NCBI GenBank assembly: GCA_049322575.1
Contig: JBMORQ010000027.1
Coordinates: 87,081-151,080, forward strand
DNA length: 64,000 bases
Direction: 5' to 3'
Source: Patescibacteria group bacterium
Lineage (GTDB): Bacteria > Patescibacteriota > Microgenomatia > UBA1400 > PJMF01
Shown: in pieces, positions 1 to 64,000 of the stretch
Layout of the letters: each line of letters opens with the position of its first letter
How positions within the stretch are numbered: position 1 is the first letter of the stretch
Program-made: the position numbers and the translations under genes
The notes under the pieces: model-generated
Told to the model about the DNA's origin: nothing
Database searches by the model: none
Seen by the model: only the letters and a program-made list of their open reading frames with translations

Positions 1-1641
1 GACGAGCAGGTTTCTGACGAATATTTACGCAAACTCAAAAAGCTCAAAGTCAGCCCCGAGATTGCAGAGAAGATCAAAAAAGAAATCAAGCGCCTCAAAC
101 AAATGTCTGTGGCCAATCCAGAAAGTGGCTATATCCGTTCTTGGTTAGACACAGTCTTTGATTTACCCTGGGGTATCGAGAAGGCCACAAACATTGAGAT
201 GGATTTTGCGGAAAAAACCCTGCGCATAAATCACTACGGCCTTGAAGAAATTAAAGATCGTATTCTGGAATTTATTGCTGTTCTTAAACTCAAACAAAAA
301 CAACAGGCCAAAAAACATCTATCCGTCAATCTGCCAACCATCCTTTGTTTCGCAGGTCCTCCTGGTGTCGGTAAGACCAGTTTAGGACGCTCAATAGCCG
401 ACGCTCTGGGCCGAGACTTTACAAAAATCTCATTGGGTGGAGTGCGCGACGAAGCCGAGATCCGAGGACATCGCCGTACCTATGTAGGTGCTATGACTGG
501 CCGGATTATTCGTGGCATCTCTCAGGTTAAATCATCCAATCCTGTCTTTATTCTGGACGAGATCGATAAGCTTGGTCAAGATTTCCGAGGTGACCCCTCA
601 TCTGCATTACTCGAGGTACTTGACCCAGAACAAAATCAGAAATTCGAGGACCACTATCTGGACATGCCTTTCGATCTTTCTAAAGTGCTTTTTATCACAA
701 CGGCCAACACTCTAGACACCATACCACCGGCCTTGAGAGACCGATTAGAAGTCATCCGTTTCTCTGGATATACCCCAGAAGAAAAACTCCACATCACAAA
801 AGAGCATCTCTGGGAAAAGGTCGTCCGGAACAACGGCCTTCAGGCAAAAAATCTCAAAATCTCTGACAACTTAATCGAAATGGTTATCCAAAGTTACACT
901 CGGGAAGCTGGCGTACGGGACCTGGAACGCAGTCTAAATAAGGTCGTTAGAAAACTGGCCAAACAAATCGTTGACGGATCAATTAAACCAAACTCGAGTG
1001 GCAATTTCAGCTTAACGGAAAAAATGATCGAAAAATACCTCGGTCCTGCCATCTATGACCACACCCTAACCGAAAAAACCAACCAGGTCGGACTGGCAAC
1101 GGGTTTAGCCTGGACGCAGATGGGCGGCGAGATCCTTTTCGTTGAGGTTGCTCTGACTCCTGGAAAAGGGGAAATCAGATTAACTGGAAAACTGGGTGAT
1201 GTGATGAAAGAATCTGCCCAAGCAGCTCTCACCTACATCAAAGCCAACACCAAGGAGATCGGCTTGAAACAAACCTCGCTAAACAAAACTGACGTTCACA
1301 TTCATATCCCCGAGGGAGCAATTCCCAAAGATGGGCCGTCTGCCGGTATCACCATGACTACCGCCCTAGTTTCTGCCTTTTTGAACTCTCCGGTTGACCG
1401 GACTGTGGCCATGACTGGCGAGGTCACTCTTAGGGGTAATGTTTTACCGATTGGTGGGCTGAAAGAAAAATCCATAGCTGCTTATAGAGCAGGCTGCAGG
1501 GTCATCATTTATCCGGAAAAAAACAAGCGGGATCTAATCAAGATACCTGCTTCAGTTAAGAAAAACGTTAAGTTTATCCCGGTGAAACATATGAGCGAGG
1601 TCTTAAAAATTGCCCTTATTCAAAAAACAAACAAGACCTAA
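1..1641 (+). CDS. lon: Lon protease, AAA+ ATPase and S16 peptidase domains. The gene is 5'-truncated by the window edge: the reading frame is open from nt 1, and the ORF track lists only 103..1641.
   Basis: Walker [10 protein letters not shown], Walker B ILDEIDKL, catalytic-Ser motif [13 protein letters not shown]. The frame runs open from position 1 ([20 protein letters not shown]..). Confidence 0.9.
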
Positions 1642-1707
1642 CAAAGCTACCATCACCCAAGACCGATACTCAACTTCAAGTCTGGTGTTTTTCCTGCTAA
1701 ACTACTT

Positions 1708-2688
1708 TTGATGAATAAAAAACTCATTGCTATCTTAACGGTCACTGCGCTTTTTATTGCCGTCATAATTGTTGGAATTTCAAATTCCGGAGGGGACAAC
1801 TTCCTTACCAATCTACTCAAACCCTTCAATAAATCTAGGGCTGGCCTACAGGTTATTACTAACGAAACCAACGTCTCGCTTTTTTTGAACGGTGAATATC
1901 TGGATAAAGCTCCATACATCAACAGGAATATTAAACCTGGTATATACACTTTACGGATTCAACCCGACGACACTACTCTCATACCATATGAGGCCCAGAT
2001 TCAGCTTAGCAAAGGGTTGTTAACGGTTGTTACCTGGAAACCTGGACAAACTGCAGAAATGAGCGGGGGAGTAATCTATGAACTTGAACCGTTACCCTCA
2101 AAAAAACAGGCTGAGGTTTCGTTCATCACCATACCTGATAACGCCATCATTACTTTTGACAATCAAGAGCAACAGTTCTCACCATTAACTCTGACAGACC
2201 TAGCAGCAGGACGCCATGAATACCAAGTCAGTCTGCCATCCTTCGAAACACAAAAACACACCATCAATATAGTTGCTGGACACAGGCTTAATGTCTCCAT
2301 AAAACTCGCCAAAAATAATAACGTTTATCCCTCGGCAACTCCTACTGAGCAACCATCAGATGACCAAGAATCCAGTCCCGCTGCAGAGATTACCGGCCCA
2401 AGTGATTTAAAAAGCCGCATCGGCACTAGCTCAGCAACAACTTCTGATATTCCAGCTAGCTATACTGGCCCGAGAATCCAGATCCTTTCAACAAAGTACT
2501 ATGATCACAGCAAAGAAGTACTTAAAGTTCGTGATTCAGCCAGTAGCTCCGGCAAGGAGTTGGGCTTTGCAGAAGTCGGTAAAGACTTCATTTACCTTGG
2601 AGAGTCTGACAACGGTTGGTATAAGATTGATTTCAACGGACAAGAGGGCTGGGTCAGCGCCCAATATAGTAAGTTACTTGGCGATTGA
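1708..2688 (+). CDS. Membrane-anchored protein with two PEGA-like domains and a C-terminal SH3b-like domain
   Basis: N-terminal TM helix (LIAILTVTALFIAVIIVGI). PEGA-like segments (NVSLFLNGEYLDKAPY..KPGIYTLRI and AIITFDNQ..AAGRHEYQV). C-terminal GWYKIDFNGQEGWV resembles SH3b. Confidence 0.55.
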   Translation: MMNKKLIAILTVTALFIAVIIVGISNSGGDNFLTNLLKPFNKSRAGLQVITNETNVSLFLNGEYLDKAPYINRNIKPGIYTLRIQPDDTTLIPYEAQIQLSKGLLTVVTWKPGQTAEMSGGVIYELEPLPSKKQAEVSFITIPDNAIITFDNQEQQFSPLTLTDLAAGRHEYQVSLPSFETQKHTINIVAGHRLNVSIKLAKNNNVYPSATPTEQPSDDQESSPAAEITGPSDLKSRIGTSSATTSDIPASYTGPRIQILSTKYYDHSKEVLKVRDSASSSGKELGFAEVGKDFIYLGESDNGWYKIDFNGQEGWVSAQYSKLLGD

Positions 2689-2788
2689 ATTGCATAGCTT
2701 GGAAAAGTTTGTCTCATTAGCAAAAGGGGGAGCAAAATGGCCTAGAGGACGAAAAGTCTTTGCTAGTTTGCTTGCAGTTCTGTCTGGA

Positions 2789-2948
2789 AGACTCATGGCG
2801 AAATAAAATCTTGTAGTGGAAAACTGCTTTCCATAAACGAGGGGTTATTGAGAGAGGTAGTAGCACAGCTACTTCAAGCAAGAAAAAAAACCTTTGCAGT
2901 ACTTAAAAGCAGTTTTGTAATAAAAATGCTATTTCACTACAAGTCTAG
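2789..2948. repeat. Long (~160 bp) copy A of a dispersed intergenic MITE-like repeat with imperfect terminal inverted repeats
   Basis: Left end aagactcatggcgaaata and right end ctatttcactacaagtcta are near reverse complements. The internal core gtagtagcacagctacttcaagcaagaaaaaaaacctttgcagtacttaaaagcagttttgtaataaaaatgc is shared with the copy at 10881-11044. Confidence 0.7.
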
Positions 2949-5029
2949 TTATGACCAAGTTTAATGATTATTGTTTGACCTTCTGAAAAGACTACATTAC
3001 CCAATTGAAGTAGCTTTTGTTCATCCAAATCGGCATATGCTTGGCGCTCTTTTTCACCAATAAAAATGTATTGCACCCAGTATTTTGCGATAATTTCCTG
3101 AGACAGCAGGCTTTCTGGCTCTTCGTAAACCACCCTAACTTGCTCAGCCCGCTCTCCAACCTCATCATAGCCGCCCCGCCACAACCATTCATGAACTCTC
3201 CAACCAACGATGGTCGGCAAGCCGGTGAAGACCGACACACGCTCATAGTCTGTATAACTGTCTCCCACAGCCTCCAAAACCACTGGCTGACCAACAATGT
3301 TTTCTCGCAACCAAACTATTGCCTTGTAGTCCGCGGGGTATTTTTCCTGTAACCATTTCAAACCATCAAGACCTTGGTAGTTCTGGAAATTATAGTAACC
3401 TTTGTATGAGTATTTTACGAAGGAGAAAATTGATACAAAAAGCACCATCATTATGCTTATTAAAACTGTACGCATCGCTATATCGAATTTATTCCGTTGC
3501 TGAATAAAACCAAAAAACCAAGCAACCACCAACGACATGAGTGTGAAGGCTTGAAAAGTTAATTTGAACATTGTGTTGGCTCTCGGATGATCGGTATATA
3601 TATCTTTAACAAAGATCAGCTCAGGTAGAAGCAGCAAAACTAGCGCCGCAATGGTCATAGACAATATGAACAAGAAAGTATGTGAAATTCTTTTCTTTCT
3701 GGCAGCAAGAAGCTCGCTAACCGCAAAGACACTTGCCAACAAACTCCCGATCACATGCCAACCCCAGAGAATCGCTAGTTCTCTCAACGTTGAGCCTTCC
3801 TCAACAAAACCCAAACCCTCAGAAATCGATTTGAAGTTCAGCCACCAAAAACAGGAAGTTACAACAATCGACACTAAAACCACCAAGGCAGCAAGAAGCA
3901 GTGATAGGAAAAACGACCGATCCAATAGCAAAAGGCAAACACTCACTACCACCAACAACAAGCCAAAGATAGCCATATCCCAAGCACTTGTCATCAGCAA
4001 AACACCCAGTAATATGCCAATTATTCCAGACAAATAGAGCGACCCTCGCTTGGTCAGAGCAACTTGCTGGCCCTTTTCATCGATCATGACTTTTAGCCAT
4101 AACCAAATCGTGGGAATAATCAGCAGAACAAACACCAAGCTCCAAACATGAGCATGTAAATCACTCACAACGAAACTGTACGCCGGGAACTCGTGAATGG
4201 TATGGTAAATAAACCGCGTCGCGTCAGGATACCAATATCCGTCCATAGGATTTTCTTGAGAAAGATTCTTAAAAAAATACCAAAATGTATGGGAGTTACC
4301 GGCAAAACCAACTAATAACGCAGCCACAATTCCCGCAACTATCGGAATGGTCAGAAGATGCTTGGTTTTGTTCTTTGCCATCGTATATGCTGTGAGATTT
4401 GCCACTAAACCACCGCTCTGCATCATGACCAGTCCCATCACCAATCCTAGAGCTAAATTGTATGCTCGGTCGATCCCAATGCCCCAAAAATTGAGCAAGA
4501 TCCCACCTAGGAAATGACCAAAAGTGTAGTAATTCATGGTTTCTCCGGCAAACCACATATCGAGAGCCGGCAGAGTAGGGGATTTAGAGTAACTCACCAT
4601 GAAACCGGCATCCATAAATTTTTCTAAATCAAGAATCTGAGGATTATAGCCACGAACTATGCTTAGAAAGAAAAAACCAAAAACAAACAAGAGTTCCTCA
4701 ACAAGAATTAGAGGAGCTTTTTCCTTGAGGAAAGCAAGAAGAGTTGGCCAGCTTGCTTTCAGTTTTAGGATTGATAGGCCTAGCAGCACACCAAGTAGCG
4801 ACCAAAGACCCATCTGTGAATTCACTGGCAACTTGAGGTGAGCGAGAAACCAAATAATCAACCCAACTACCAACCAACCAATCGATCGACCCCACGCCCA
4901 ACCACCGTCGACTAAGTGTTTCCTTCCCCACACCAACAACCAGGGCATAACAACGATCTGAAAAACTCCTGTCAGTAGATAGGCGTAAGCAATTGTAACT
5001 AGATCGTTGGCCAAGGTAGACTGAAACAC
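2945..5029 (-). CDS. Large polytopic membrane protein (DUF2298 / YYY-domain-like), possible GT-C-type glycosyltransferase
   Basis: 694 aa with more than 12 predicted TM helices. C-terminal soluble domain with Y-rich motif YSYKGYYNFQNYQG. Sits in a glycosylation gene neighbourhood. Confidence 0.5.
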   Translation of the reverse strand: MFQSTLANDLVTIAYAYLLTGVFQIVVMPWLLVWGRKHLVDGGWAWGRSIGWLVVGLIIWFLAHLKLPVNSQMGLWSLLGVLLGLSILKLKASWPTLLAFLKEKAPLILVEELLFVFGFFFLSIVRGYNPQILDLEKFMDAGFMVSYSKSPTLPALDMWFAGETMNYYTFGHFLGGILLNFWGIGIDRAYNLALGLVMGLVMMQSGGLVANLTAYTMAKNKTKHLLTIPIVAGIVAALLVGFAGNSHTFWYFFKNLSQENPMDGYWYPDATRFIYHTIHEFPAYSFVVSDLHAHVWSLVFVLLIIPTIWLWLKVMIDEKGQQVALTKRGSLYLSGIIGILLGVLLMTSAWDMAIFGLLLVVVSVCLLLLDRSFFLSLLLAALVVLVSIVVTSCFWWLNFKSISEGLGFVEEGSTLRELAILWGWHVIGSLLASVFAVSELLAARKKRISHTFLFILSMTIAALVLLLLPELIFVKDIYTDHPRANTMFKLTFQAFTLMSLVVAWFFGFIQQRNKFDIAMRTVLISIMMVLFVSIFSFVKYSYKGYYNFQNYQGLDGLKWLQEKYPADYKAIVWLRENIVGQPVVLEAVGDSYTDYERVSVFTGLPTIVGWRVHEWLWRGGYDEVGERAEQVRVVYEEPESLLSQEIIAKYWVQYIFIGEKERQAYADLDEQKLLQLGNVVFSEGQTIIIKLGHN

Positions 5030-5220
5030 GGTGTATTATTATAAATAAGACTAAGTGAAAATAAATGAGAAAAACCGCAACAGGAAAGGCAACTTAATGT
5101 CTTACCGGCTCCAAGACGCTGAAGCAGCCAAACTCTAAGAATAAATTGTTTAACAGCAGCTAAGCAGGAATACTAGTTCGCTCAAAATGATAAGAGTCCC
5201 GGCTAATTAACTGATCTTAT

Positions 5221-6009
5221 TTATCTTTTCTGCAAAACAAAAAAAACTGCCGCAGCTTCTGACTCATCAGATTGAGTTGATCTATTGTATTTTTCGATCA
5301 GTTTATGCATCGAGAAGAAAGAATACCATTTTTTGATAATCACCCATTGGCCAAAAAGTTTATATGTAACTAAACTTGGCAAAGAAAAAAAATGCAACAG
5401 CTCCATCAATCGTGAGCCATCTTTTGGTAAATACGTAACCACCTTTTTGACTCTAAAACCAACCTTCATAAACTTTTGCGACCATTGATCAACTGTCAAC
5501 AAATTGAAGTGTTGTTGCTTCTTCCTCAACCATCTTTTATATAAATCCCCAAAAATTGCCGATCCAAGCAGATTCTCTTCCCATTTATCTGTCATAACTG
5601 TTGTTAGAAAAATCGAATTTTTTTTCATGACTCTGTGAATTTCAGCAATCGAATAGTCTAAATCCGGTATATGTTCCAAAACGCTGTTAGAGATAACACC
5701 AGAAAAAGTATTGCTCTTAAAAGGAATCGTTTTTCCATCAAAAGAAACAGTTTTTTTGTAAACGTCTTGAACGCTTGCCTGATTAAGACGACTATCAAAC
5801 ACATCCAGACCAATATCCACTTTCTTTTTTCCAAAAACTTGCTTGGCAAAAAAACCATCTCCACATCCATAATCAAGAATCATTGGTTTAATTTCTGTCA
5901 GATGCCTACGCATTAACCAAACTTCAAAAGGACGAAGTAGTGAAAAAAACATCGGCCTATTCTCCAAGTAACTTAGCGTAGCCTCTAGCATTTCGCGAGC
6001 ATTACTCAT
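5221..6009 (-). CDS. Class I SAM-dependent methyltransferase (Methyltransf_11-like)
   Basis: Motif I ILDYGCGDGFF, followed by an acidic post-I residue (GLDVFD). Confidence 0.8.
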   Translation of the reverse strand: MSNAREMLEATLSYLENRPMFFSLLRPFEVWLMRRHLTEIKPMILDYGCGDGFFAKQVFGKKKVDIGLDVFDSRLNQASVQDVYKKTVSFDGKTIPFKSNTFSGVISNSVLEHIPDLDYSIAEIHRVMKKNSIFLTTVMTDKWEENLLGSAIFGDLYKRWLRKKQQHFNLLTVDQWSQKFMKVGFRVKKVVTYLPKDGSRLMELLHFFSLPSLVTYKLFGQWVIIKKWYSFFSMHKLIEKYNRSTQSDESEAAAVFFVLQKR

Positions 6010-41630: not shown

Positions 41631-42196
41631 ATAATTAATGCATCTATGCTGAGAACACTTATGACACTCGTATGTATAGTTGATTTTATTGAGATATGAT
41701 ACTATTAACCAGTCTTATAAAGACATCATATACTAGCTTGCGGCCAAGGTCATATCTGGCGGTAAGTTTAAAATTGCTAAGTCAATCAGGCTGAGTTCTC
41801 TCTTGAACTTTGTCGCTAACAGCCTGGTGGTATGTAAGTGGTGTGTATATGAATGTCTTATAAGAGTGAGTATAATGACGTTGCCTTCGAAACAAGTGGG
41901 TGAAAGTGTATTCTATGAACAGTGAGATTCAAAAAAAAGAAGCATTGAAACAAAGGCTCGAGTCCATCTCCGAGCAACTTGACCTTAAATACCAGCCCCT
42001 TGAACAATTCATTGCCCAGCTTGATAGCGAAAGCAGAATTCCTCTTGCGATCGGCATACAACTTGCAAAATCATTCGAATCAGCTCTTGCCCTACTTAAC
42101 CCTGAAGATATTAAACTCATTGCACAAGTAGTTGATAAGGCTTTCTCAGTTTCAAGAAAAATAGAGGATATTCAACTCTTCTTGCAAACCCTAGAA

Positions 42197-43984
42197 ATGC
42201 CTAGATTGAATACTGCCAAGGCAATTGCCAGTTTGATCCTGTTGGTTTCATTCTTAAGCGGCTGTTTGAGCCCTGGCGCTTCGGCTCAGGAAAACCCAAC
42301 CAACACCAACGGGCCAAGAGTTACTGAGACAGCACAAGTGCAGATGCCAACTGAAACTAACGTGGATCCAACTGGTACAAATAGCGATCCAACCGCTGAC
42401 AACCCGACTGTACCGGTGAGCCCGGAGGCAGCGGCGACTGGTACAAACTCACCCACTGAGACAGCCTCCCCCACATTTACAGTAGCTCCAATAGAGGTCG
42501 GTCCTCTTCCAACCGAGGTAACAGGTCCGGAAAACCTATCTGTAGCTAGACTTGCTGTCACATATACAGGACTATCAAATCTATGGGGTGGAAATAAAGA
42601 GGCTCTTGAGAAGGAAAAATTATCAATATGTCTTCCCATTTATAAGGAAGTGGCCTTGGAAATTAAGGGAAGCGAATACATTAACAACTATTACATTACG
42701 GATTGCAGGGGCGACGGTGCTCCCATGTTTGTAAATAGTGAAGGTCAAGAGATTGATGCTAAAAGTTATTTTGCTCTCTACCATGACATAGACATCAGCA
42801 AAGTTGGCAATATCATTCCCGTAACCGATATCAATCAGATTAATCTTGGCATAGATGATAGACTAACAGTTTTTCTTACTAATTCAGAACCAGTTACTTA
42901 TAGAGGCATCGACGGTATTGGAAATCCTCTCAGACTCGTACCAAATCGCGGAAAAGATGCTGGAACAATCCCTGAATTTTATATTGTTGATGCATTAGTT
43001 AGAGTCGATGGCATAGCTGCAGATGGCTCTATCTTTCGAACTGATCTTCTTCGCTGCCAATATGACGCAACCCGCAACGTAGCCCCAGTTGTAGTCGTAA
43101 TTGACGGACAAAACCGTTTTGGGAAAATTGATCAGTCAACGGGTGAAATCACTGCTTATTACGCAAACGGTGTGTGGGTTGACATCGCATACGAGGATAC
43201 TGAACCAACACAGGTAGCTGCTGTGCCAACGCAAACTAAAATATCAGCAACTGAAACTTCAGGTGCAATGCATATTGATATGGCAACAGCTGGCAATATG
43301 ACCACACTAACTTGGGGGGAGGGGTTAAACCTTAACATGCAAACTCTTCCTGGAGTTGAGATTGGACCTGGACCAAAAGCTAACATGCAACCCATAAAAG
43401 GTCATGAAGGACTTTATTCCGTTTGGGGAAATTATGGAAAAGAGTTTCACTTTACAAAAGACCCATTAACATTTAACTACGTTGACGAACAAGGAAGAAA
43501 TATCACAGCTATAATTTTTGAACTAGCGGAAACAACATTTAAAGATATTGATAAAAAATCTCAAGAATCATATGTTTCTACTCAGTTACTTGCTTATGAT
43601 GAAGATGGATATGTTACAAGATTAATTCTTTTAGCACAGGGAATAGATTTAGATAATTATCCTGCCGTTAATAATTTAACTTCAAAAGAAGAAAGAATGA
43701 AAGCTATTAATGGACTAATAAAATCGCTTAGTTCAATAAACTATTCTACAAGCACTAGGAGAACGGGGTTGGGAGAAGACTTCGAATACCACCCCAATGA
43801 TCCAGAACGTTTCATGGAATTTGTTGTTAGCAACAGTAAAATTCAGAAGGCAATCACCAACATACTGACTTCTGGAGCCGGTGGTTTGGGAGATAATAAT
43901 CTAGAACTAATCAAACAAGCTATTGAAGCAGGAATACTTATCCCGAGCAATGAGTTGGAAGGCCAAGTCTTGAATATAAAATAA
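42197..43984 (+). CDS. Surface lipoprotein of unknown function. The lipobox start at 42197 is preferred; the ORF track extends in frame to 41900.
   Basis: MPRLNTAKAIASLILLVSFLSGC has a signal peptide plus LSGC lipobox, followed by a Thr/Pro/Asn-rich linker and a domain of about 480 aa with no motif I recognise. Confidence 0.6.
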   Translation: MPRLNTAKAIASLILLVSFLSGCLSPGASAQENPTNTNGPRVTETAQVQMPTETNVDPTGTNSDPTADNPTVPVSPEAAATGTNSPTETASPTFTVAPIEVGPLPTEVTGPENLSVARLAVTYTGLSNLWGGNKEALEKEKLSICLPIYKEVALEIKGSEYINNYYITDCRGDGAPMFVNSEGQEIDAKSYFALYHDIDISKVGNIIPVTDINQINLGIDDRLTVFLTNSEPVTYRGIDGIGNPLRLVPNRGKDAGTIPEFYIVDALVRVDGIAADGSIFRTDLLRCQYDATRNVAPVVVVIDGQNRFGKIDQSTGEITAYYANGVWVDIAYEDTEPTQVAAVPTQTKISATETSGAMHIDMATAGNMTTLTWGEGLNLNMQTLPGVEIGPGPKANMQPIKGHEGLYSVWGNYGKEFHFTKDPLTFNYVDEQGRNITAIIFELAETTFKDIDKKSQESYVSTQLLAYDEDGYVTRLILLAQGIDLDNYPAVNNLTSKEERMKAINGLIKSLSSINYSTSTRRTGLGEDFEYHPNDPERFMEFVVSNSKIQKAITNILTSGAGGLGDNNLELIKQAIEAGILIPSNELEGQVLNIK

Positions 43985-44737: not shown

Positions 44738-47509
44738 ATGAGAACAAAATATATTATTTTTTTGACTTTCCTATTTTTATATTTTTTCTGTTTTTACAAA
44801 GACGTAACTGCTGATGCAAGGTGTGGGATTGGTTCGTATTGTTCAGATAGCACCGGCGGTGAAGTAGTTACACAATGTTTTTGGAATGGTGCTTACTGTG
44901 AAAATTATAGATGGCACTGGGAGGCTGCAGATTGTAGCGGTAGCCCTACTTGCTATGATAGTGATTTTCCAAGCGGAGAATGTCCCGGATTACCTCCCTC
45001 AGGCACAAGTAAAGTCTATAGCTGTCCAATTGGAAATGGGGAAAATGATCATTTATGCGCAGGTTGTGACCCTTATGCTGTAGTAGACCTTGACGCACAA
45101 ACTCCAGAATCTAACTTCTGTACTGTTGGAGCTTATACCGATGTATGTAGTTGTCTTCCACAAAATGTCTCATGCGGTCCGCCCACAGGAAATGGCATGT
45201 GGTGCTGCCTCGCCGACGACGTCACCCCCACCCCCGGTGGTGGTGGCGGGCCAGGACCCACCACCCCTCCAGCTGCTCCCAACGATCCAATCGGTTATCA
45301 CGATGCCGTCAACTGTAACGGAGAGCAGATCTGGGGTTGGGCCTGTGACCCAGACAACTACAACGCGACTTTGCAGATCGACATTTACATAGACGGCAAT
45401 TATGTACCGCCAACCATCGCAAATCTCAATCGTCCAGACATTGCTGGTGTTTGTGGCGGTACCACTAACCACGGTTTCACTTACACCATCCCAGAGCAAT
45501 ACCGCGATGGTAACTGTCATTCGGTTCAGGCTTATGCACTCAACGCTTCTGGCACCCCAGGCAACAATTTTGGCTTAACTAACTCACCTAGAACTCTCTG
45601 CGGTTGTTATACCAACAAGAGTTGTACCATCAGCTTGTCTGGATCTAATCAGATAGTCTATAGTGGTTCACAAGTTGGCCCTGTTTTCCAGGTTGTTGCT
45701 TCTTCCGCCGAAACATATGACACATCGCATCTCTATATCATGCGTGATACCAACTCAGTGATCAGCCCAGCGCCGCTGTATTCAATAGATTCTGATCCAT
45801 ATCAAACCATGTCAACCGTTGTTGGTGGTTTGTACTACTATTACAACTCTCCTGTTTGTCACCCAAGTTTTGGCAATGCTTGCTCCTTTGGCGTCACTCT
45901 CAGCAGCCTGCCACCTGGCCGCTATGCCGCCTTTTGTGACGTCAGTGATAGTACAAACGGCAGCGACAGCTGTTCAGGTAATCCAAACTGTACCTTCAAC
46001 TCTTCAAGTTATCTCAGTCTCAGCTGTACCGGTTTCCGCGACTGTTCAAACAGTGACTGGACGACTTTTACCGTTGTCACACCATCTCCGAGTCCCACGC
46101 CAACTCCAACACCCAGTGCTTCGCCTACACCCAGCTCCACACCCACCCCAACTCCTACGCCGGCGATCCAAGGTTTCTTCTATGAGGAAACTGGCAGTAC
46201 TTTTATGGGTTCGGTTATTTGCTCAGATTTAAGTGGCATAACTCCTGCCCCGGTAGCACTTAGTAACTCAGTCGGTGGCATTTCAGCACATCGCACCAGT
46301 CCGGCAGGGGATTATGCTGGAGTGATTAGTAGTGATCGATTTAGCATCAATACTCCAGATAGTTCAGCTAACAACTATTCAGTTACTCTTGATCTCAATG
46401 GGCAAACTGATCCGTCCAACACCTGGGTCTGTTCTTGTCCACAAACTGTTGGCGGGGATCCTTTCGTTTGCCAATATCATGATGATATTCTCGGAATAGG
46501 TGGTAACCAGAAAAATGTGCCCTTTTTCTTAACAAACTACAACCTCAGCAACATCAGCTGGTGGCAAGTTGCTGGTGGCAACACTTATGCCCGTAATGTG
46601 ATTCGTTCACAAGTTCCATACGATATATGCAACCCAGAAAGTACTTGCTATGCCGGCCTGATGGCTGGTCTGCCTTGGAATAATAGCATTAGCAATACTG
46701 CTGGTTTCCCTCTGGTAGGCCAGGGTGGATCAATCATCACCAGCGATGACGGCACAAATTACATTCATGCGCCAGGATCAAGAAACCTAGCCGAACAGGG
46801 TAGAGGAATCGGCATTAGCTTGCCAAGAGAGGATTATGCTTATTTCTACGAACGGTTTGGTGCATCGGCTACACCATTAGGGGGTACTAATCCCAATAAA
46901 CCAGCCTCTGGTAGCTACATCACTAGTGGTTCAATTACTATCAACGAAACTAATTCTTGGTCTGTCTCCAGTGGCGAATCAATCGTTGTTTTCGTCAACG
47001 GCAACTTAACCATTGACTCCGCCTCAGCCGACACTAGGCTTACCCAAGTGGCCACGGGCGGTTATCTGGCATTTATCGTCGCCGGGAATATTACGATTGG
47101 TGATAGAGTTGGTTACTCAGATCCTCTGACTGATGCCACCCAACCAACCAATACCAATCTCGAGGGTGTGTTTATTGCCGACGGCACGATTACCGTTGCC
47201 AGTGATAACAATGCAACCACCATCGACAACAAATTTATTGCAGCTGGTACATTTGTAGGCTGGGGAGGTGTTAACCTTCAGCGTACTTATGAAGATGGCA
47301 GTTTAGGTGCGGCTAATAATAATCTGAGTCCGACCGAAACCTTTATTTTCCGCCCAGATCTGGTTGTCAACACTCCTGCATCAATGCGCTCGGCCCAATT
47401 CACCTGGCAAGAAATTAACCCCAGCTTTAACACCTTTGAGAGCCAGCCTCCTGTGGTCACCCCTACCGAGGAAGACCACATCGGTCCACCGGGCGGAAAT
47501 GTCATCTAG
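44738..47509 (+). CDS. Large (923 aa) Cys-rich secreted protein, a candidate pilus-associated adhesin. It has a signal peptide, Cys-rich N-terminal modules, a PT linker and a beta-helix-like C-terminal region.
   Basis: Signal peptide MRTKYIIFLTFLFLYFFCFY. More than 40 Cys in the first 600 aa. Linker TPSPSPTPTPTPSASPTPSSTPTPTPTP. Repetitive segment GNLTIDSASADTRL..GNITIGDRVG. Its 3' end overlaps the next pilin ORF. Confidence 0.6.
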   Translation: MRTKYIIFLTFLFLYFFCFYKDVTADARCGIGSYCSDSTGGEVVTQCFWNGAYCENYRWHWEAADCSGSPTCYDSDFPSGECPGLPPSGTSKVYSCPIGNGENDHLCAGCDPYAVVDLDAQTPESNFCTVGAYTDVCSCLPQNVSCGPPTGNGMWCCLADDVTPTPGGGGGPGPTTPPAAPNDPIGYHDAVNCNGEQIWGWACDPDNYNATLQIDIYIDGNYVPPTIANLNRPDIAGVCGGTTNHGFTYTIPEQYRDGNCHSVQAYALNASGTPGNNFGLTNSPRTLCGCYTNKSCTISLSGSNQIVYSGSQVGPVFQVVASSAETYDTSHLYIMRDTNSVISPAPLYSIDSDPYQTMSTVVGGLYYYYNSPVCHPSFGNACSFGVTLSSLPPGRYAAFCDVSDSTNGSDSCSGNPNCTFNSSSYLSLSCTGFRDCSNSDWTTFTVVTPSPSPTPTPTPSASPTPSSTPTPTPTPAIQGFFYEETGSTFMGSVICSDLSGITPAPVALSNSVGGISAHRTSPAGDYAGVISSDRFSINTPDSSANNYSVTLDLNGQTDPSNTWVCSCPQTVGGDPFVCQYHDDILGIGGNQKNVPFFLTNYNLSNISWWQVAGGNTYARNVIRSQVPYDICNPESTCYAGLMAGLPWNNSISNTAGFPLVGQGGSIITSDDGTNYIHAPGSRNLAEQGRGIGISLPREDYAYFYERFGASATPLGGTNPNKPASGSYITSGSITINETNSWSVSSGESIVVFVNGNLTIDSASADTRLTQVATGGYLAFIVAGNITIGDRVGYSDPLTDATQPTNTNLEGVFIADGTITVASDNNATTIDNKFIAAGTFVGWGGVNLQRTYEDGSLGAANNNLSPTETFIFRPDLVVNTPASMRSAQFTWQEINPSFNTFESQPPVVTPTEEDHIGPPGGNVI

Positions 47510-58709: not shown

Positions 58710-61481
58710 ATGTCAGACACAACCCAAAATTCCTATAAAGCCAGCCACATTAAGGTCCTGGAAGGCCTAGAGCCCGTCCGCAAGAGGCCTGGAATGTATA
58801 TCGGTTCGACCGATAGCAAAGGCCTACATCACCTAGCGAAAGAAATTCTCGACAACGCTGTGGACGAAGCCATCGCAGGATTTGGCAAAAACATTCAACT
58901 TTTCCGTAGCAACACCACCGAGGCCGAACAAAAACTGGCCAATAACCCTGATCTTGGCGACGAGGTAATCACCGTAGTTGATAACGGTCGTGGTATACCG
59001 GTCGAAATGCACGAATCAGGCGTTTCTGCCCTCGAGGTGGTCATGACAAAACTTCACGCTGGAGGTAAGTTTGAAGAAACCGCCTACCAAGCATCTGGAG
59101 GTCTTCATGGCGTGGGTTCGTCTGCCGTTAATGCTTTGTCTGCACTAATGCAAGTTGTTGTTAAACGCGACAGTAGATACTACTACCAGTGGTATAGCAA
59201 AGGTGTTCCGGGACAAAAAGTCAGTGAAATTACTCTCGAAGAGGTTAAACAAATTTTTCCTGATCAATTAAGTAGCTTCACCAGCTATCAAACCGGTACC
59301 ATCGTTAAATTTATTCCCGACAAAACCATCTTTTCCACCACCACCTTTGGTCACAACACCTTAGTTCAAATCATCAAAGATCGTGCCTACCTGATGGCCG
59401 GTATTTATTTTGAACTCAATGACCTAATTGCCGGAGTTAATAAGCACTATTACTTCGAGGGTGGTATTCGCTCCTTGGTTGAACACCTCAACATGAGCAA
59501 AAAAGCGCTGCATGATGTTTTCTATGTCTCTGGAGTTTGGCAAGACGAAACAACTCATAAAAAAATCGGGGTTGAGGCTGCCTTGCAATACAACGATAGC
59601 TACAACGAAAAAGTTGAAAGCTATGTCAACGTTATCAACACCCCGGACGGCGGCACCCACGTTAATGGTTTTCGCACTGCATTAGGACGTGTTTTGCGCG
59701 ACTACGCTGAAAAAAACGGTTTGCTCAAGGAAAAGGAATCATTTGTTGCCGACGACTTGCGTGAAGGTTTAACAGCCGTGGTTTTTGTTAAAATGCCGGC
59801 CAACGACCTGCAGTTTGAATCTCAAACCAAGTCCAAACTCAACAACGCCGAGGCTCAAACCGCAGTTTATCAAATCTTCAAAGATAATTTTGTGACTTTT
59901 TTGGAAGAAAACCCCAAAGTCGGCCGCGAGATTGTAGGCAAAATCATGCTCTCAGCTCGCGCTCGCATGGCTGCTCGCGCTGCCAAGGATGCCGTCATCC
60001 GCAAGGGTTTACTCGAGGGCAACTCTCTGCCAGGAAAGTTAGCAGATTGTCAAAGCCACGAGGCCGCCGAGTCGGAGATTTATATTGTTGAGGGAGATAG
60101 TGCTGGTGGCTGTTTCTCTGGTGACACTAAAGTTGCATTGGCTGACGGTAGAAATCTAAGTTTCCTTGAAATAATTTCTGAACAAAATCAAGGTAAAAAA
60201 CATTTTTGCTACACCATTCGCAGAGACGGAAAAATTGGATTAGCTCCAGTTATCAATCCACGTCAAACAAAGGCTAGCGCAACTGTCATCAAATTAACCC
60301 TAGATTCTGGTGAAACAATTGTCTGCACCCCAGACCACAGATTCATGCTCCGAACTGGCAAATACTGCAGAGCTGACAAGCTTACAACCCAAGATTCAAT
60401 CATGCCTTTGTATAAAAAAATATCAGATAGGAAACAGAAGGGCATAACGATTGATGGTTATGAAATGGTTTGGGATCCTAAATCAAACCAATGGCTTTTC
60501 ACTCATAAACTAGCACAATGGACAAGTGAATTCAGACAAAAAAGGAAAGAGACTTTGGGAAACACATACTTCCACAAAACGCTCTCCTGTATGAAAAATT
60601 TTGTCCAAGACAGTGGCTTGATTGATCTAGCCGCATATGCCGAACACCGACGATCTGTTAATGATAAAACCCTCCTTAAATTTGAAACTTTCACACAAAA
60701 ATATTTTGGTGGTGATCAAATTTCTTCTCTAGAGGTCATAGCAAATTATAATCACAAAATTGTTAAAGTCGAAAAACTATCGGAAAAAATTCCAGTTTAC
60801 GATATCGAAGTTCCTGGATCACACAATTTTGCTTTGTCTTCTGGAGTATTTGTTCACAATAGTGCCAAGCAAGGCCGCGACCGCCGTTTTCAAGCCATTT
60901 TCCCATTGCGTGGCAAAATCCTTAACACCGAGCGGGCCAGAATCGACAAAGTGGTGGCCTTCGAGGAACTCAAAAATCTCGTGATCGCTCTGGGCGCCGG
61001 TATTGGCGACACTTTTGATGCTGGTAAATTACGCTACCATCGCATTATTCTCATGAACGATGCTGATGTTGATGGCGAACACATCACCACTCTTGGCCTG
61101 ACTTTCTTCTTCCGCCATCTGCCCGCTATCGTCGAGCAAGGCTATCTTTACGTTGCCATGCCACCACTTTACAAAGTCACCCACAACAAAAAAGACAACT
61201 ATGTCTACACCGAAGAGGAAAAAGATGCTGCGGTCGCCGAGATCCAGAAGACATCACCCAACGCCAAAATTGAACTTCAGCGTTACAAAGGTTTGGGTGA
61301 GATGAACCCTGAGCAACTCTGGGAAACAACCATGAACCCTAAAACTCGAACCCTTAAAAAGGTAACTATCGCGGATGCCGCTAATGCTGATCGCACTTTC
61401 TCTGTTCTGATGGGGGACGAGGTTGCGCCACGCAAAAAGTTTATTCAAAGTCATGCCCAGTTAGCTGACTTGGATATTTAG
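58710..61481 (+). CDS. gyrB: DNA gyrase subunit B interrupted by an in-frame 250-aa intein. The start is taken at MSDTTQN (58710); the ORF track gives 58668.
   Basis: LEGLEPVRKRPGMYIG. The GHKL ATPase. TOPRIM motif EGDSAGG split from SAKQGRDRRFQAI by the intein. C-terminal QRYKGLGEMNPEQLWETTM. Confidence 0.9.
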   Translation: MSDTTQNSYKASHIKVLEGLEPVRKRPGMYIGSTDSKGLHHLAKEILDNAVDEAIAGFGKNIQLFRSNTTEAEQKLANNPDLGDEVITVVDNGRGIPVEMHESGVSALEVVMTKLHAGGKFEETAYQASGGLHGVGSSAVNALSALMQVVVKRDSRYYYQWYSKGVPGQKVSEITLEEVKQIFPDQLSSFTSYQTGTIVKFIPDKTIFSTTTFGHNTLVQIIKDRAYLMAGIYFELNDLIAGVNKHYYFEGGIRSLVEHLNMSKKALHDVFYVSGVWQDETTHKKIGVEAALQYNDSYNEKVESYVNVINTPDGGTHVNGFRTALGRVLRDYAEKNGLLKEKESFVADDLREGLTAVVFVKMPANDLQFESQTKSKLNNAEAQTAVYQIFKDNFVTFLEENPKVGREIVGKIMLSARARMAARAAKDAVIRKGLLEGNSLPGKLADCQSHEAAESEIYIVEGDSAGGCFSGDTKVALADGRNLSFLEIISEQNQGKKHFCYTIRRDGKIGLAPVINPRQTKASATVIKLTLDSGETIVCTPDHRFMLRTGKYCRADKLTTQDSIMPLYKKISDRKQKGITIDGYEMVWDPKSNQWLFTHKLAQWTSEFRQKRKETLGNTYFHKTLSCMKNFVQDSGLIDLAAYAEHRRSVNDKTLLKFETFTQKYFGGDQISSLEVIANYNHKIVKVEKLSEKIPVYDIEVPGSHNFALSSGVFVHNSAKQGRDRRFQAIFPLRGKILNTERARIDKVVAFEELKNLVIALGAGIGDTFDAGKLRYHRIILMNDADVDGEHITTLGLTFFFRHLPAIVEQGYLYVAMPPLYKVTHNKKDNYVYTEEEKDAAVAEIQKTSPNAKIELQRYKGLGEMNPEQLWETTMNPKTRTLKKVTIADAANADRTFSVLMGDEVAPRKKFIQSHAQLADLDI
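60111..60860 (+). mobile_element. Intein (250 aa) inserted in the GyrB TOPRIM motif EGDSAGG|SAKQGRDR
   Basis: N-terminal Cys (CFSGDTKVAL, block A). Block B TPDHRF. Block F/G YDIEVPGSHNFALSSGVFVHN. Ends His-Asn with a +1 Ser. No clear LAGLIDADG motifs in the central region of about 130 aa. Confidence 0.8.
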
Positions 61482-62501: not shown

Positions 62502-64000
62502 ATGTCCGACCAAGACCCAAAAAACCAACCAGAAAAAATCGAGATCGTCGATCTTGAACAAGAACAACGAAAATTTGAAGAAACTGAGGCAGAGTCGGTT
62601 AATGACGATCTTAATGATGATTCCCTCATTGGGACAGTCACCGATTCAAAGTTTGGCAAACTGAAACACATTTCGATCGTCGAGGAAATGGAAAAATCTT
62701 ACCTCGACTATGCCATGAGCGTCATCGTAGCTCGTGCCTTACCTGATGTGAGAGATGGTTTAAAGCCGGTCCACCGTCGTATTCTTTTTTCGATGTTTCG
62801 TAGCGGTATTCATCACAACAGTGCTTACAAAAAATCCGCTCGTATTGTCGGTGATGTTTTAGGTAAGTACCATCCTCATGGTGATTCGTCCGTCTACATG
62901 GCTTTGGTGCGCTTGGCCCAAGACTTTAGCATGCGCTATCCTCTGATTGACGGCCAGGGAAACTTTGGTTCAATTGATGGGGACAGCCCTGCAGCCATGC
63001 GTTACACCGAGGCACGTCTAGCAAAAATTTCTCAAGAACTTTTGGCTGATATTAACAAAAAAACCGTCAAACACGTCGACAACTTTGACGGCTCTCTCCA
63101 GGAACCAGCCGTTCTCCCAACCCGTTTGCCAAATCTCTTGCTGATGGGCTCAGAAGGCATTGCTGTGGGTATGGCTACCAAAATCCCACCTCACAATTTA
63201 ACGGAAGTCTCAAATGCCATCATCGAAATGATCCAAAAGGGTAGAGCAGAGGTTGAAACCAAGCTTGTCTTCCCACCAGCCGAGGTTGCCGGCAAAGAAA
63301 AAATTACCAACCCAGAGCTAATTGACTTTGTGATTAAAACAGAAGCCGCAACACTTGCAGGTAAATTCGAGAGTGACATTACTTTCGATGAGATCATGAC
63401 CCACATCAACGGTCCGGACTTTCCTACAGCCGGCATTATTTATGACTTTAACGCCATTAAACAAGCTTATCAACTTGGTCGTGGCAGGATCGTCATCCGG
63501 GCCAAGACCTCAATCGAGGAATCCGGCAAAGGCTACCAAATTGTAGTGACCGAACTTCCTTACCAAGTCAACAAAGCCAAATTACTCATGAAAATTGCCG
63601 ACTTGGTCAAAGATAAGAAAATTATCGGCATCAAAAATTTACGCGATGACTCGGACCGCAAGGGTATGCAGGTAACCATCGAGCTTAAACGCGATGCCCG
63701 ACCCAAAGTCATTCTCAACAAACTTTTTAAGTACTCAGATCTGCAAACGACCTTCTCTCTCAATATTGTTGCTCTAAACAGCGAGGGCACCCCTCAGCTG
63801 ATGAACATCCGTCAGATCCTCAAGGAGTATATTCTTCACCGTCAGTTGGTTATCGTCAGACGTAGCCAGTTTGATCTCGGGGAAGCCCGTGATCGCGCCC
63901 ATATCCTAGAAGGCTTGCTGATCGCCTTGGCTAACCTCGATGAAGTAATTGAGACCATTCGCCGCTCACCAGACACCCAAACCGCTCACGATGCTTTAAT
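62502..64000 (+). CDS. gyrA: DNA gyrase subunit A (3'-truncated by the window edge)
   Basis: [32 protein letters not shown]. The active-site region [10 protein letters not shown]. The frame is open to position 64000. Confidence 0.9.

Follow-up and report, generated by a model that had tools for sequence, protein, structure and literature searches.

A Patescibacteria GyrB intein, predicted to splice, that very probably lost its HNH endonuclease core by a single deletion

The Ssp GyrB intein of Synechocystis sp. PCC 6803 is 435 residues long and belongs to a family known since 1997. An HNH-family homing endonuclease is said to have been first recognised in this intein by Dalgaard et al. in that year, in NAR 25:4626. 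Its C-intein consists of GVFVHN followed by Ser (PMC2794532), and the intein splices efficiently after deletion of the endonuclease domain (PMC3620165). The homing-cycle model for such elements includes stages of degeneration and deletion (PMC8966425, PMC4760082), and natural mini-inteins and inteins with degenerate endonucleases are read as products of these stages (PMC8966425). When bacterial phyla known to have GyrB inteins were listed in 2015, Patescibacteria were not among them (PMC4760082), and our literature search for inteins in Patescibacteria found nothing.

The window analysed here, a 64,000-nucleotide stretch of a Patescibacteria genome, contains on its forward strand an open reading frame (58710-61481) of 923 codons, stop-free throughout, whose translation is that of gyrB. 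Pfam HATPase_c and DNA_gyraseB match the N-extein, and the TIGR01059 gyrB profile matches residues 9-923 with all 639 profile positions covered. The gene is interrupted by an in-frame insertion of 250 codons inside the GyrB TOPRIM domain, between EGDSAGG and SAKQGRDRRF; the initial annotation had placed this 750-nt insertion at 60111-60860, and its coordinates proved to be exact to the base. The N-extein ends in ...YIVEGDSAGG, the C-extein begins with SAKQGRDRRFQAIFPLRGKI, and the inserted sequence itself runs from CFSGDTKVALADG to SSGVFVHN. Because residues 718-806 match positions 13-86 of the Pfam Toprim profile, TOPRIM resumes directly after the insertion; DNA_gyraseB_C follows at residues 852-913. 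Removal of the insertion restores an uninterrupted host protein of 673 aa. Aligned with GyrB from a relative whose site is empty (locus L002), this protein shows no gap across the junction; identity is 73% overall, and 20/20 aa and 50/60 nt are identical around the junction. The seamless motif that the initial annotation proposed to look for in the extein-joined GyrB was recovered. Extein identity between the window GyrB and its empty-site relatives was 73-78%. The features are listed in Table 1.

Table 1. Positions of the gyrB exteins, the intein and its parts in the window
Feature	Coordinates	Strand	Content and basis
gyrB N-extein, 467 aa	58710..60110	+	ATPase domain, transducer domain and start of TOPRIM; terminus ...EIYIVEGDSAGG
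Whole intein, 250 aa, class 1 (Cys1 ... His-Asn / Ser+1)	60111..60860	+	Translation, Pfam and TIGR profiles, AlphaFold2, Foldseek
N-terminal splicing region, aa 1-99	60111..60407	+	Block A Cys1, block B T73-P-D-H76; TIGR01445 aa 1-79; pLDDT 90-98
N-terminal HNH-domain remnant, aa 100-135 (...GITIDGYEMVWDPKSNQWLFTHKLA)	60408..60515	+	Alignment to full-size inteins; the catalytic core that comes next in full-size forms is absent
Deletion junction, A135-Q136-W137	60513..60521	+	185 residues absent, equal to P0123 intein residues 136-320
C-terminal endonuclease-region remnant, aa 136-210 (QWTSEFRQKRKETLGNTYFHKTL...DKTLLKFETFTQKYFGGDQISSLEVIANYNH)	60516..60740	+	Aligned with the final ~75 residues of the endonuclease region in full-size inteins; predicted helical
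C-terminal splicing region, aa 211-250	60741..60860	+	Block F VYD231...H238NFAL, block G GVFVH249N250; TIGR01443 aa 228-250
gyrB C-extein, 206 aa and stop	60861..61481	+	Ser+1 nucleophile first: SAKQGRDRRFQAIFPLRGK...; remainder of TOPRIM and GyrB C-terminal domain

The insertion contains intein blocks A, B, F and G and is followed by Ser+1. In an alignment of 44 related inteins, C1, T73, P74, H76, D231, H238, H249 and N250 are invariant, and the SAKQ context at +1 is common to all 43 intein-bearing relatives; the Cys start, the TxxH block (TPDH) and the HN end before Ser+1 that had been picked out initially are all present. A profile search of the 250-aa insert, suggested at the same time, placed all intein profiles above their curated cut-offs: Pfam Intein_splicing (PF14890) scored 71.3 bits (cut-off 35.8; E = 1e-19), TIGR01445 intein_Nterm 46.1 (cut-off 24.5) and TIGR01443 intein_Cterm 29.7 (cut-off 15.6). 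These profiles, the predicted fold and the seamless extein junction agree with the original reading of the insertion as a canonical intein placed in the TOPRIM motif of GyrB. Residue 228, one residue before the VYD of block F, is Pro only in the window intein and Asp in 42 of the 43 relatives; this D228P difference could alter folding or splicing rate. We conclude that the window gyrB carries a genuine intein that is probably still self-splicing, and we infer autocatalytic splicing from the intact residues and the essential host motif.

The AlphaFold2 model of the window intein has a mean pLDDT of 86, with values above 90 in the HINT parts. The best Foldseek matches of this model were the DnaE, DnaB, RecA and NrdJ-1 mini-inteins (TM-scores, normalised to target, of 0.75-0.84; E down to 5e-9), and the HINT fold recognised here is accordingly that of a predicted structure. 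Helices are predicted at residues 153-162, 173-183, 191-199 and 203-211. Model confidence is lowest just downstream of the deletion junction, with means of 65 for residues 131-140 and 47 for residues 141-150, and residues 144-151 lie below 50.

The survey of related proteins covered the 120 best GyrB relatives, mostly from Patescibacteria. With the window's own protein excluded, 43 of the 120 carry an intein at the same site, with 53-67% identity to the window intein. The check for empty or occupied sites in related genomes proposed in the initial annotation found both kinds, and the occupied sites hold full-size inteins, intermediates and minis. That annotation had also called an intact intein in a reduced genome notable; given its frequency among the best relatives, this was overstated, and "intact" applies to the splicing part and not to mobility, which is predicted to be broken. 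Inteins of 421-436 residues are found in 26 relatives, those of the close Patescibacteria relatives being 434-436 residues long. Six minis measure 139-160 residues, and 11 other intermediate deletions have boundaries that are all different. Of the 12 inteins of intermediate size, the window's included, 9 keep the central region that in the window intein comprises ~110 residues. In one pair of relatives (P0128 and P0138) the exteins are identical at 677/677 positions, whereas the inteins are 434 and 209 residues long; at another locus (L082) a related intein is broken by frameshifts.

The full-size Patescibacteria inteins (for example P0123, P0128 and P0130) contain an HNH endonuclease together with a region of helical repeats. 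PHROG HNH endonuclease families matched all 10 full-size inteins scanned, with a best E of 3.3e-11, and Pfam HNH_3 matched 8 of the 10 below its cut-off (best 2.9e-4). The positions HH-D-F-K-NNNP-N...H..LH are invariant in full-size inteins, and in the model of one relative (P0001) a beta-beta-alpha element lies at the HNH motif (pLDDT 84-92). Foldseek with the same model listed HINT matches only, and a sequence search of the PDB with a profile of the endonuclease region gave only chance-level matches (E at least 0.26). Profiles, motif and predicted secondary structure point to an HNH endonuclease in the parent inteins.

The window intein aligns with the full-size inteins from end to end, minus exactly one block, and this missing block contains every HNH residue. 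Because the core HH..DF.K.NNNP.N...H..LH is absent, the window intein is a derivative of the Ssp GyrB family rather than a bifunctional member of it. No LAGLIDADG, HNH or GIY-YIG profile in Pfam or PHROGs matched the central region, in agreement with the lack of such motifs reported initially; no LAGLIDADG or Hom_end profile matched the window intein at E<=1, and the C-terminal remnant (aa 136-210) matched no family. The centre aligns to an HNH-type region, not to that of a LAGLIDADG-type intein. Three explanations had been offered for it earlier, of which degeneration was borne out, in the form of an HNH remnant left by the 185-residue deletion, and an unusual endonuclease and a plain linker were not. 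An out-of-frame endonuclease inside the intein, as reported in a recent dnaX intein preprint, was considered and rejected: the open reading frames at 60263-60445 (-), 60503-60694 (-) and 60760-60984 (+) had no Pfam match.

The N-terminal HNH remnant (~36 residues) has 63% identity to full-size relatives. The remnants have diverged no further than the corresponding segments have among full-size inteins (0.42 compared with 0.44, and 0.63 compared with 0.60); free decay is not apparent, a pattern that either a recent deletion or continuing constraint could produce. The breakpoint is ambiguous within the codons of the junction, because each of the two flanks of the missing block ends in [D/Q]-W in full-size inteins. 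The closest intein found has ~67% identity to the window intein. Because no relative exceeds that level, we can only infer the full-size ancestor of the window lineage, and the DNA-level breakpoint and any junction microhomology are beyond reconstruction. With 250 residues, ~110 of them endonuclease remnant, the window intein falls outside the mini-inteins (~130-200 residues with a short linker); it is structurally intermediate and resembles a mini-intein in function.

GC content is 37.2% in the intein and 47.4% in the exteins, and GC3 is 0.30 and 0.50, respectively. The GC3 of the intein is below that of all 31 long open reading frames of the window (0.32-0.47), and 12% of the window's 750-nt tiles are equally AT-rich; the low GC is only suggestive of a foreign origin. 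Within the window there is no second intein of the Ssp GyrB family, the gyrA intein site is empty, and the neighbours of gyrB are ordinary housekeeping genes.

These results are very probably explained by a class-1 intein of the Ssp GyrB family, located in TOPRIM between EGDSAGG and SAKQ, that lost its HNH core by one 185-residue deletion and is predicted to splice. In splicing, Cys1 would undergo an N-S acyl shift, Ser+1 would attack the thioester and Asn250 would cyclise, joining ...SAGG to SAKQ... to give a normal 673-residue GyrB. We take the direction of change to have been deletion from a large ancestor, presumably a bifunctional intein of 434-436 residues with a nested HNH homing endonuclease. 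That endonuclease would have cut empty gyrB alleles, repair of which copied the element in. A single in-frame deletion would then have removed the whole catalytic core together with most of the helical repeat region. Because the core is deleted, nuclease activity is predicted to be lost and the intein to be no longer able to home. It would persist because its loss or damage would kill an essential gene, and the boundaries of the deletion would be clean because only in-frame, splicing-preserving deletions can survive. The window intein has reached the point in the homing cycle at which the endonuclease is lost, an ordinary phase of a long-known selfish element.

The remaining ~110 central residues could be viewed differently, as a functional but unrecognised homing endonuclease or DNA-targeting domain that keeps the intein mobile. 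Their predicted folded helices (pLDDT 70-94) and their retention in most intermediate-size inteins, with no unusual divergence, would be consistent with such a domain; however, the region matches the two flanks of the HNH region residue by residue, the catalytic residues all lie in the missing 185, and six minis do without the region entirely. As neither nuclease profiles in Pfam or PHROGs nor the three out-of-frame reading frames gave a match, we consider continued mobility highly improbable. An unlikely alternative is that the remnant has been selected, either as a scaffold for HINT splicing (HINT-HEN mutualism) or as a module that binds DNA or senses redox state and so makes the maturation of GyrB conditional. 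Mutualism between HEN scaffold and HINT is documented in other inteins (PMC8966425), and conditional splicing is known for DnaB inteins (PMC6195587). The C-terminal helical block is kept in most independent deletion derivatives, and the remnant has diverged only as much as the same segments have among full-size inteins. On the other hand, the natural minis found at this site (139-160 residues) have no such block, an Ssp GyrB mini-intein engineered to lack the endonuclease domain splices efficiently (PMC3620165), and retention may reflect the position and recency of tolerated deletions. If selection were true, the GyrB inteins of Patescibacteria would in part have been domesticated as regulators, for instance of the timing of active gyrase B release, and would not be purely selfish relics.

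It is also very doubtful that the insertion is a dead relic unable to splice, or that it arose as an artefact of assembly, in which case the gene as written would give no active gyrase product. The unique D228P beside block F, the frameshifted intein at the related locus and the origin of the sequence from metagenome assemblies only could be taken in this way. Against this, the 923-codon frame is open and all catalytic splicing residues are intact. The insertion interrupts a catalytic motif, TOPRIM, in an essential enzyme, where a non-splicing copy should be lethal barring a second gyrB, and none is present in the window. An identical protein occurs in two assemblies, a 190 kb NCBI MAG contig and a 26 kb Logan contig, from samples that are possibly not independent.

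The window intein matters mainly for how the gene is annotated. The identical protein is listed by NCBI simply as "ATP-binding protein"; the proper label would be intein-containing DNA gyrase subunit B, and the mature product would have 673 residues. NCBI already uses that label for some relatives, among them P0130 from Candidatus Pacebacteria. The wider value lies in the surrounding family: the Patescibacteria GyrB relatives show, at a single site, the homing cycle in all its stages and form a compact natural dataset for examining how homing endonucleases vanish and which deletions the HINT domain tolerates. The family could also guide mini or split designs of the widely used Ssp GyrB intein.

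The full-size Patescibacteria GyrB inteins share the insertion site and block order of the window intein and have 61-62% intein identity to it over shared columns, but they keep the HNH core and repeat region (residues 136-320). Fragments of cyanobacterial GyrB (Planktothrix, Pseudanabaena) have 50-54% identity to the window intein. With its TOPRIM ...SAGG/SAKQ... site and HINT homology, the window intein adds a member to the Ssp GyrB family, which is itself long known. It has the same host protein as the Ssp GyrB intein and an identical six-residue C-intein, GVFVHN before S; the Ssp N-extein junction presumably corresponds to the window site. The sequence comparison with the Ssp GyrB intein covered the published C-intein; in length, the full-size Patescibacteria relatives (434-436 residues) are close to its 435. 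Unlike the Ssp GyrB intein, the window intein has a Patescibacteria host, and a natural deletion has taken 185 residues from it, the HNH core among them, and left ~110 residues of the endonuclease flanks. The Mxe GyrA intein, the Ssp DnaB mini-intein and PhoVMA likewise combine a splicing-competent HINT fold (predicted for the window intein) with no working endonuclease. In PhoVMA, however, a LAGLIDADG domain was inactivated by point degeneration, whereas the window intein belongs to an HNH lineage and underwent one large deletion; and the minis have ~140-200 residues, compared with an intermediate 250 here.

Translation of gyrB gave one uninterrupted frame of 923 codons (see the table of coordinates). 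A script located the insertion within it at exactly the bounds proposed in the initial annotation, whose quoted motifs were also correct; the flanks read ...EIYIVEGDSAGG on the N-extein side and SAKQGRDRRFQAIFPLRGKI... on the C-extein side. The precursor covered profile positions 1-639 of the gyrB equivalog TIGR01059. Its Pfam Toprim match restarted at residue 718, profile position 13, and thus the intein divides the TOPRIM domain close to the domain start. In the closest genome match (L002) GyrB has 671 residues and the intein site is empty. Alignment of the joined exteins to this protein showed 73% identity (492/673 residues) and was free of gaps across the splice junction, around which 20/20 residues and 50/60 nucleotides were identical; joining the exteins, as had been suggested as a check, restored the TOPRIM motif.

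Coordinates of the gyrB intein and of other features in the window and in related loci
Feature	Positions	Strand	Description
gyrB precursor	58710-61481	+	host gene of the intein
Intein	60111-60860	+	250 residues; first CFSGDTKVALADG, last SSGVFVHN
Substitution D228P	60792-60794	+	directly precedes block-F VYD
gyrA	62502-64000	+	continues past the window end; intein site beside the active-site region empty (DGQGNFG/...)
Large ORF	41915-43984	+	689 aa
Large ORF	44738-47509	+	923 aa
gyrB of a Nanoarchaeota relative (L009)	1501-5232		1244 aa; both GyrB sites occupied by inteins
gyrB of a related locus (L082)	2024-5293		on a 1.7-Mb contig; full-size intein of the same family; called as two ORFs

Two records contain the identical 923-residue protein: a Logan assembly of SRR32167786 and an NCBI MAG with the label Patescibacteria group bacterium, whose annotation calls it simply "ATP-binding protein". 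The gyrB neighborhood is ordinary housekeeping, with genes for a PilB-type ATPase, DNA polymerase III delta', a DHH/DHHA2 phosphoesterase, and gyrA, and farther away PheT, a class A penicillin-binding protein, and RecG. Neither of the two large ORFs had a Pfam match at E<=1e-5; the longer equals the GyrB precursor in length by chance, had no intein match, and is unrelated to inteins.

The identification as an intein was borne out by all three intein profiles, each exceeding its curated cut-off: Pfam Intein_splicing (71.3 bits, E=1e-19; cut-off 35.8), TIGR01445 for the N-terminal splicing region (46.1; cut-off 24.5), and TIGR01443 for the C-terminal splicing region (29.7; cut-off 15.6). Residues C1, T73, P74, H76, D231, H238, N239, H249, and N250 were invariant in 44/44 aligned sequences. 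Of the columns conserved in at least 90% of sequences, the window intein departed from the consensus in just three (L97I, A243S, and D228P). D228P was seen in none of the 43 relatives, 42 of which have Asp, and lies where the AlphaFold2 model is highly confident (10-residue block mean 97). That model had a mean pLDDT of 86, with the HINT parts above 90. A Foldseek search with it matched the solved mini-inteins Ssp and Npu DnaE, Ssp DnaB, Mtu RecA, and NrdJ-1 (E down to 5e-9; TM-scores normalized to target 0.75-0.84). Because the enzyme is essential, its catalytic TOPRIM motif is broken by the insertion, and the frame is open, we infer that the window intein splices.

Full-length relatives were gathered using the whole precursor as query, and the intein was cut out of each. 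Among the best 120 matches, 43 besides the window's own protein were occupied at the same site, a proportion inflated by the presence of the intein in the query; SAKQ directly followed the intein in all 43. The remaining relatives had an empty site and about 670 residues. Some Patescibacteria relatives are already named "intein-containing DNA gyrase subunit B" by NCBI. The inteins were full-size in 26 relatives (421-436 residues, most 434-436), intermediate in 11 (181-404 residues), and mini in six (139-160 residues). In the full-size intein of L082 the reading frame passes through all three frames near the start of the HNH region, which could reflect long-read errors or a real pseudogene.

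In a MAFFT alignment the window intein matched the full-size form end to end except for one missing block, corresponding to residues 136-320 (185 residues) of the intein in P0123, a full-size relative. In full-size inteins this block starts at ...LADW/YNRW and ends at ...KKQW/TPEF, and the window intein reads LAQWTSEF. Because the flanks are alike, [D/Q]-W closing both, the breakpoint is ambiguous within A135-W137. The pLDDT fell below 50 at residues 144-151, directly downstream of the junction, and residues 153-211 of the remnant were predicted to be helical (pLDDT 70-94).

When only the intein was used as query, the matches included GyrB fragments with a clear HNH-like motif in the center, such as HCHHVDFNKLNNNPTNIRRL..EDHLGLH in P0001. 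PHROG families annotated as HNH endonuclease matched 10/10 of the full-size endonuclease regions scanned (best phrog_7545, E=3.3e-11; also phrog_21964 and phrog_15471), and Pfam HNH_3 matched 8/10, below the family cut-off. Positions H57, H58, D60, F61, K63, N65-N67, P68, N70, H79, L82, and H83 of alignment A2 were invariant. The AlphaFold2 model of P0001 had a strand-strand-helix at 160-195 (pLDDT 84-92). No solved structure anchored the HNH fold: the Foldseek matches listed for this model were all HINT domains, and a profile search of PDB sequences with the endonuclease region gave only chance-level matches. Neither the whole window intein nor its central 125 residues had an HNH match in Pfam or PHROGs, in keeping with the initial reading that the center lacks an obvious HNH motif. 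Judged by profiles, motif, and predicted secondary structure, the block lost from the window intein is the HNH endonuclease. Of the descriptions first offered for the center, a degenerate or unusual homing domain or linker, "degenerate" fits, in that the window intein is probably a splicing-competent, endonuclease-dead deletion derivative of an HNH-type GyrB intein.

Identity between the window and full-size inteins was 0.63 in the N-remnant (residues 100-135) and 0.42 in the C-remnant (136-210), compared with 0.60 and 0.44 among the full-size inteins themselves. Since the similarity of the remnant to full-size inteins matches that among the latter, either the deletion would be recent or the remnant would be under continuing constraint. 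The C-terminal helical block was kept in 9/12 intermediate forms, the window's included, and was absent from 6/6 minis.

We propose that the endonuclease would have been lost from a larger intein by in-frame deletion, a process that the relatives appear to display directly. In an essential gene the only survivors would be in-frame deletions that spare splicing, which would account for the clean boundaries. These boundaries differed in every intermediate relative, indicating independent losses. Among Patescibacteria GyrB proteins, the exteins of P0128 (434-residue intein) and P0138 (209) were identical at 677/677 residues and their inteins had one difference among shared positions; those of P0123 (434) and P0129 (257) were 97% identical. 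From these pairs, endonuclease loss appears to be a polymorphism within one population. The size series is in line with the homing-cycle model, specifically with its stages of degeneration and deletion (PMC8966425; PMC4760082). The window intein has 37.2% GC and a GC3 of 0.30, versus 47.4% and 0.50 for the exteins; the 31 long ORFs in the window all had higher GC3 (0.32-0.47), but among tiles of 750 nt from across the window 12% were equally AT-rich. This composition is compatible with an origin that is foreign or under different constraint, without proving it.

Related inteins were found at other sites. The gyrA site that is empty in the window is occupied by this family elsewhere, as in P0053 from a Micrarchaeota archaeon. 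A second GyrB site follows the TOPRIM ...MTDAD motif; P0010 has an intein there and an empty EGDSAGG/SAKQ site. Together with the doubly occupied L009, this suggests site switching inside one host gene. Inteins in dCTP deaminase genes (P0085, P0088, P0090, P0091, and others) aligned with all 250 residues of the window intein (30-32% identity), and NF052663, an NCBIfam model of an intein-containing RtcB-family protein, covered the window intein in its entirety (E=9e-39); thus, the same lineage has colonized several unrelated host genes. In IMG/VR viral contigs (loci L084-L163), 107 stretches encode related inteins (26-55% identity), several with an HNH-like core ...HH...K.NN.P...EH..H; these lie in phage genes whose exteins read ...DHP..G/C...HN/SKD. 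The family may be carried by phages.

The Ssp GyrB intein of Synechocystis, a standard tool, is 435 residues long, and Dalgaard et al. reportedly recognized an HNH endonuclease in it in 1997. The window intein lacks this feature of Ssp GyrB-type bifunctional inteins, that part being deleted, yet is larger than a true mini-intein. Its C-terminus is identical to the 6-residue Ssp GyrB C-intein, GVFVHN, then Ser (PMC2794532), and the Ssp GyrB intein splices efficiently with its endonuclease domain removed (PMC3620165). A 2015 survey listed GyrB among intein hosts, with 33 bacterial cases from Actinobacteria, Chloroflexi, Cyanobacteria, and Proteobacteria (PMC4760082). The window intein is a new allele of this known GyrB intein family; of more use is the series of Patescibacteria alleles around it, as data on how endonucleases are lost.
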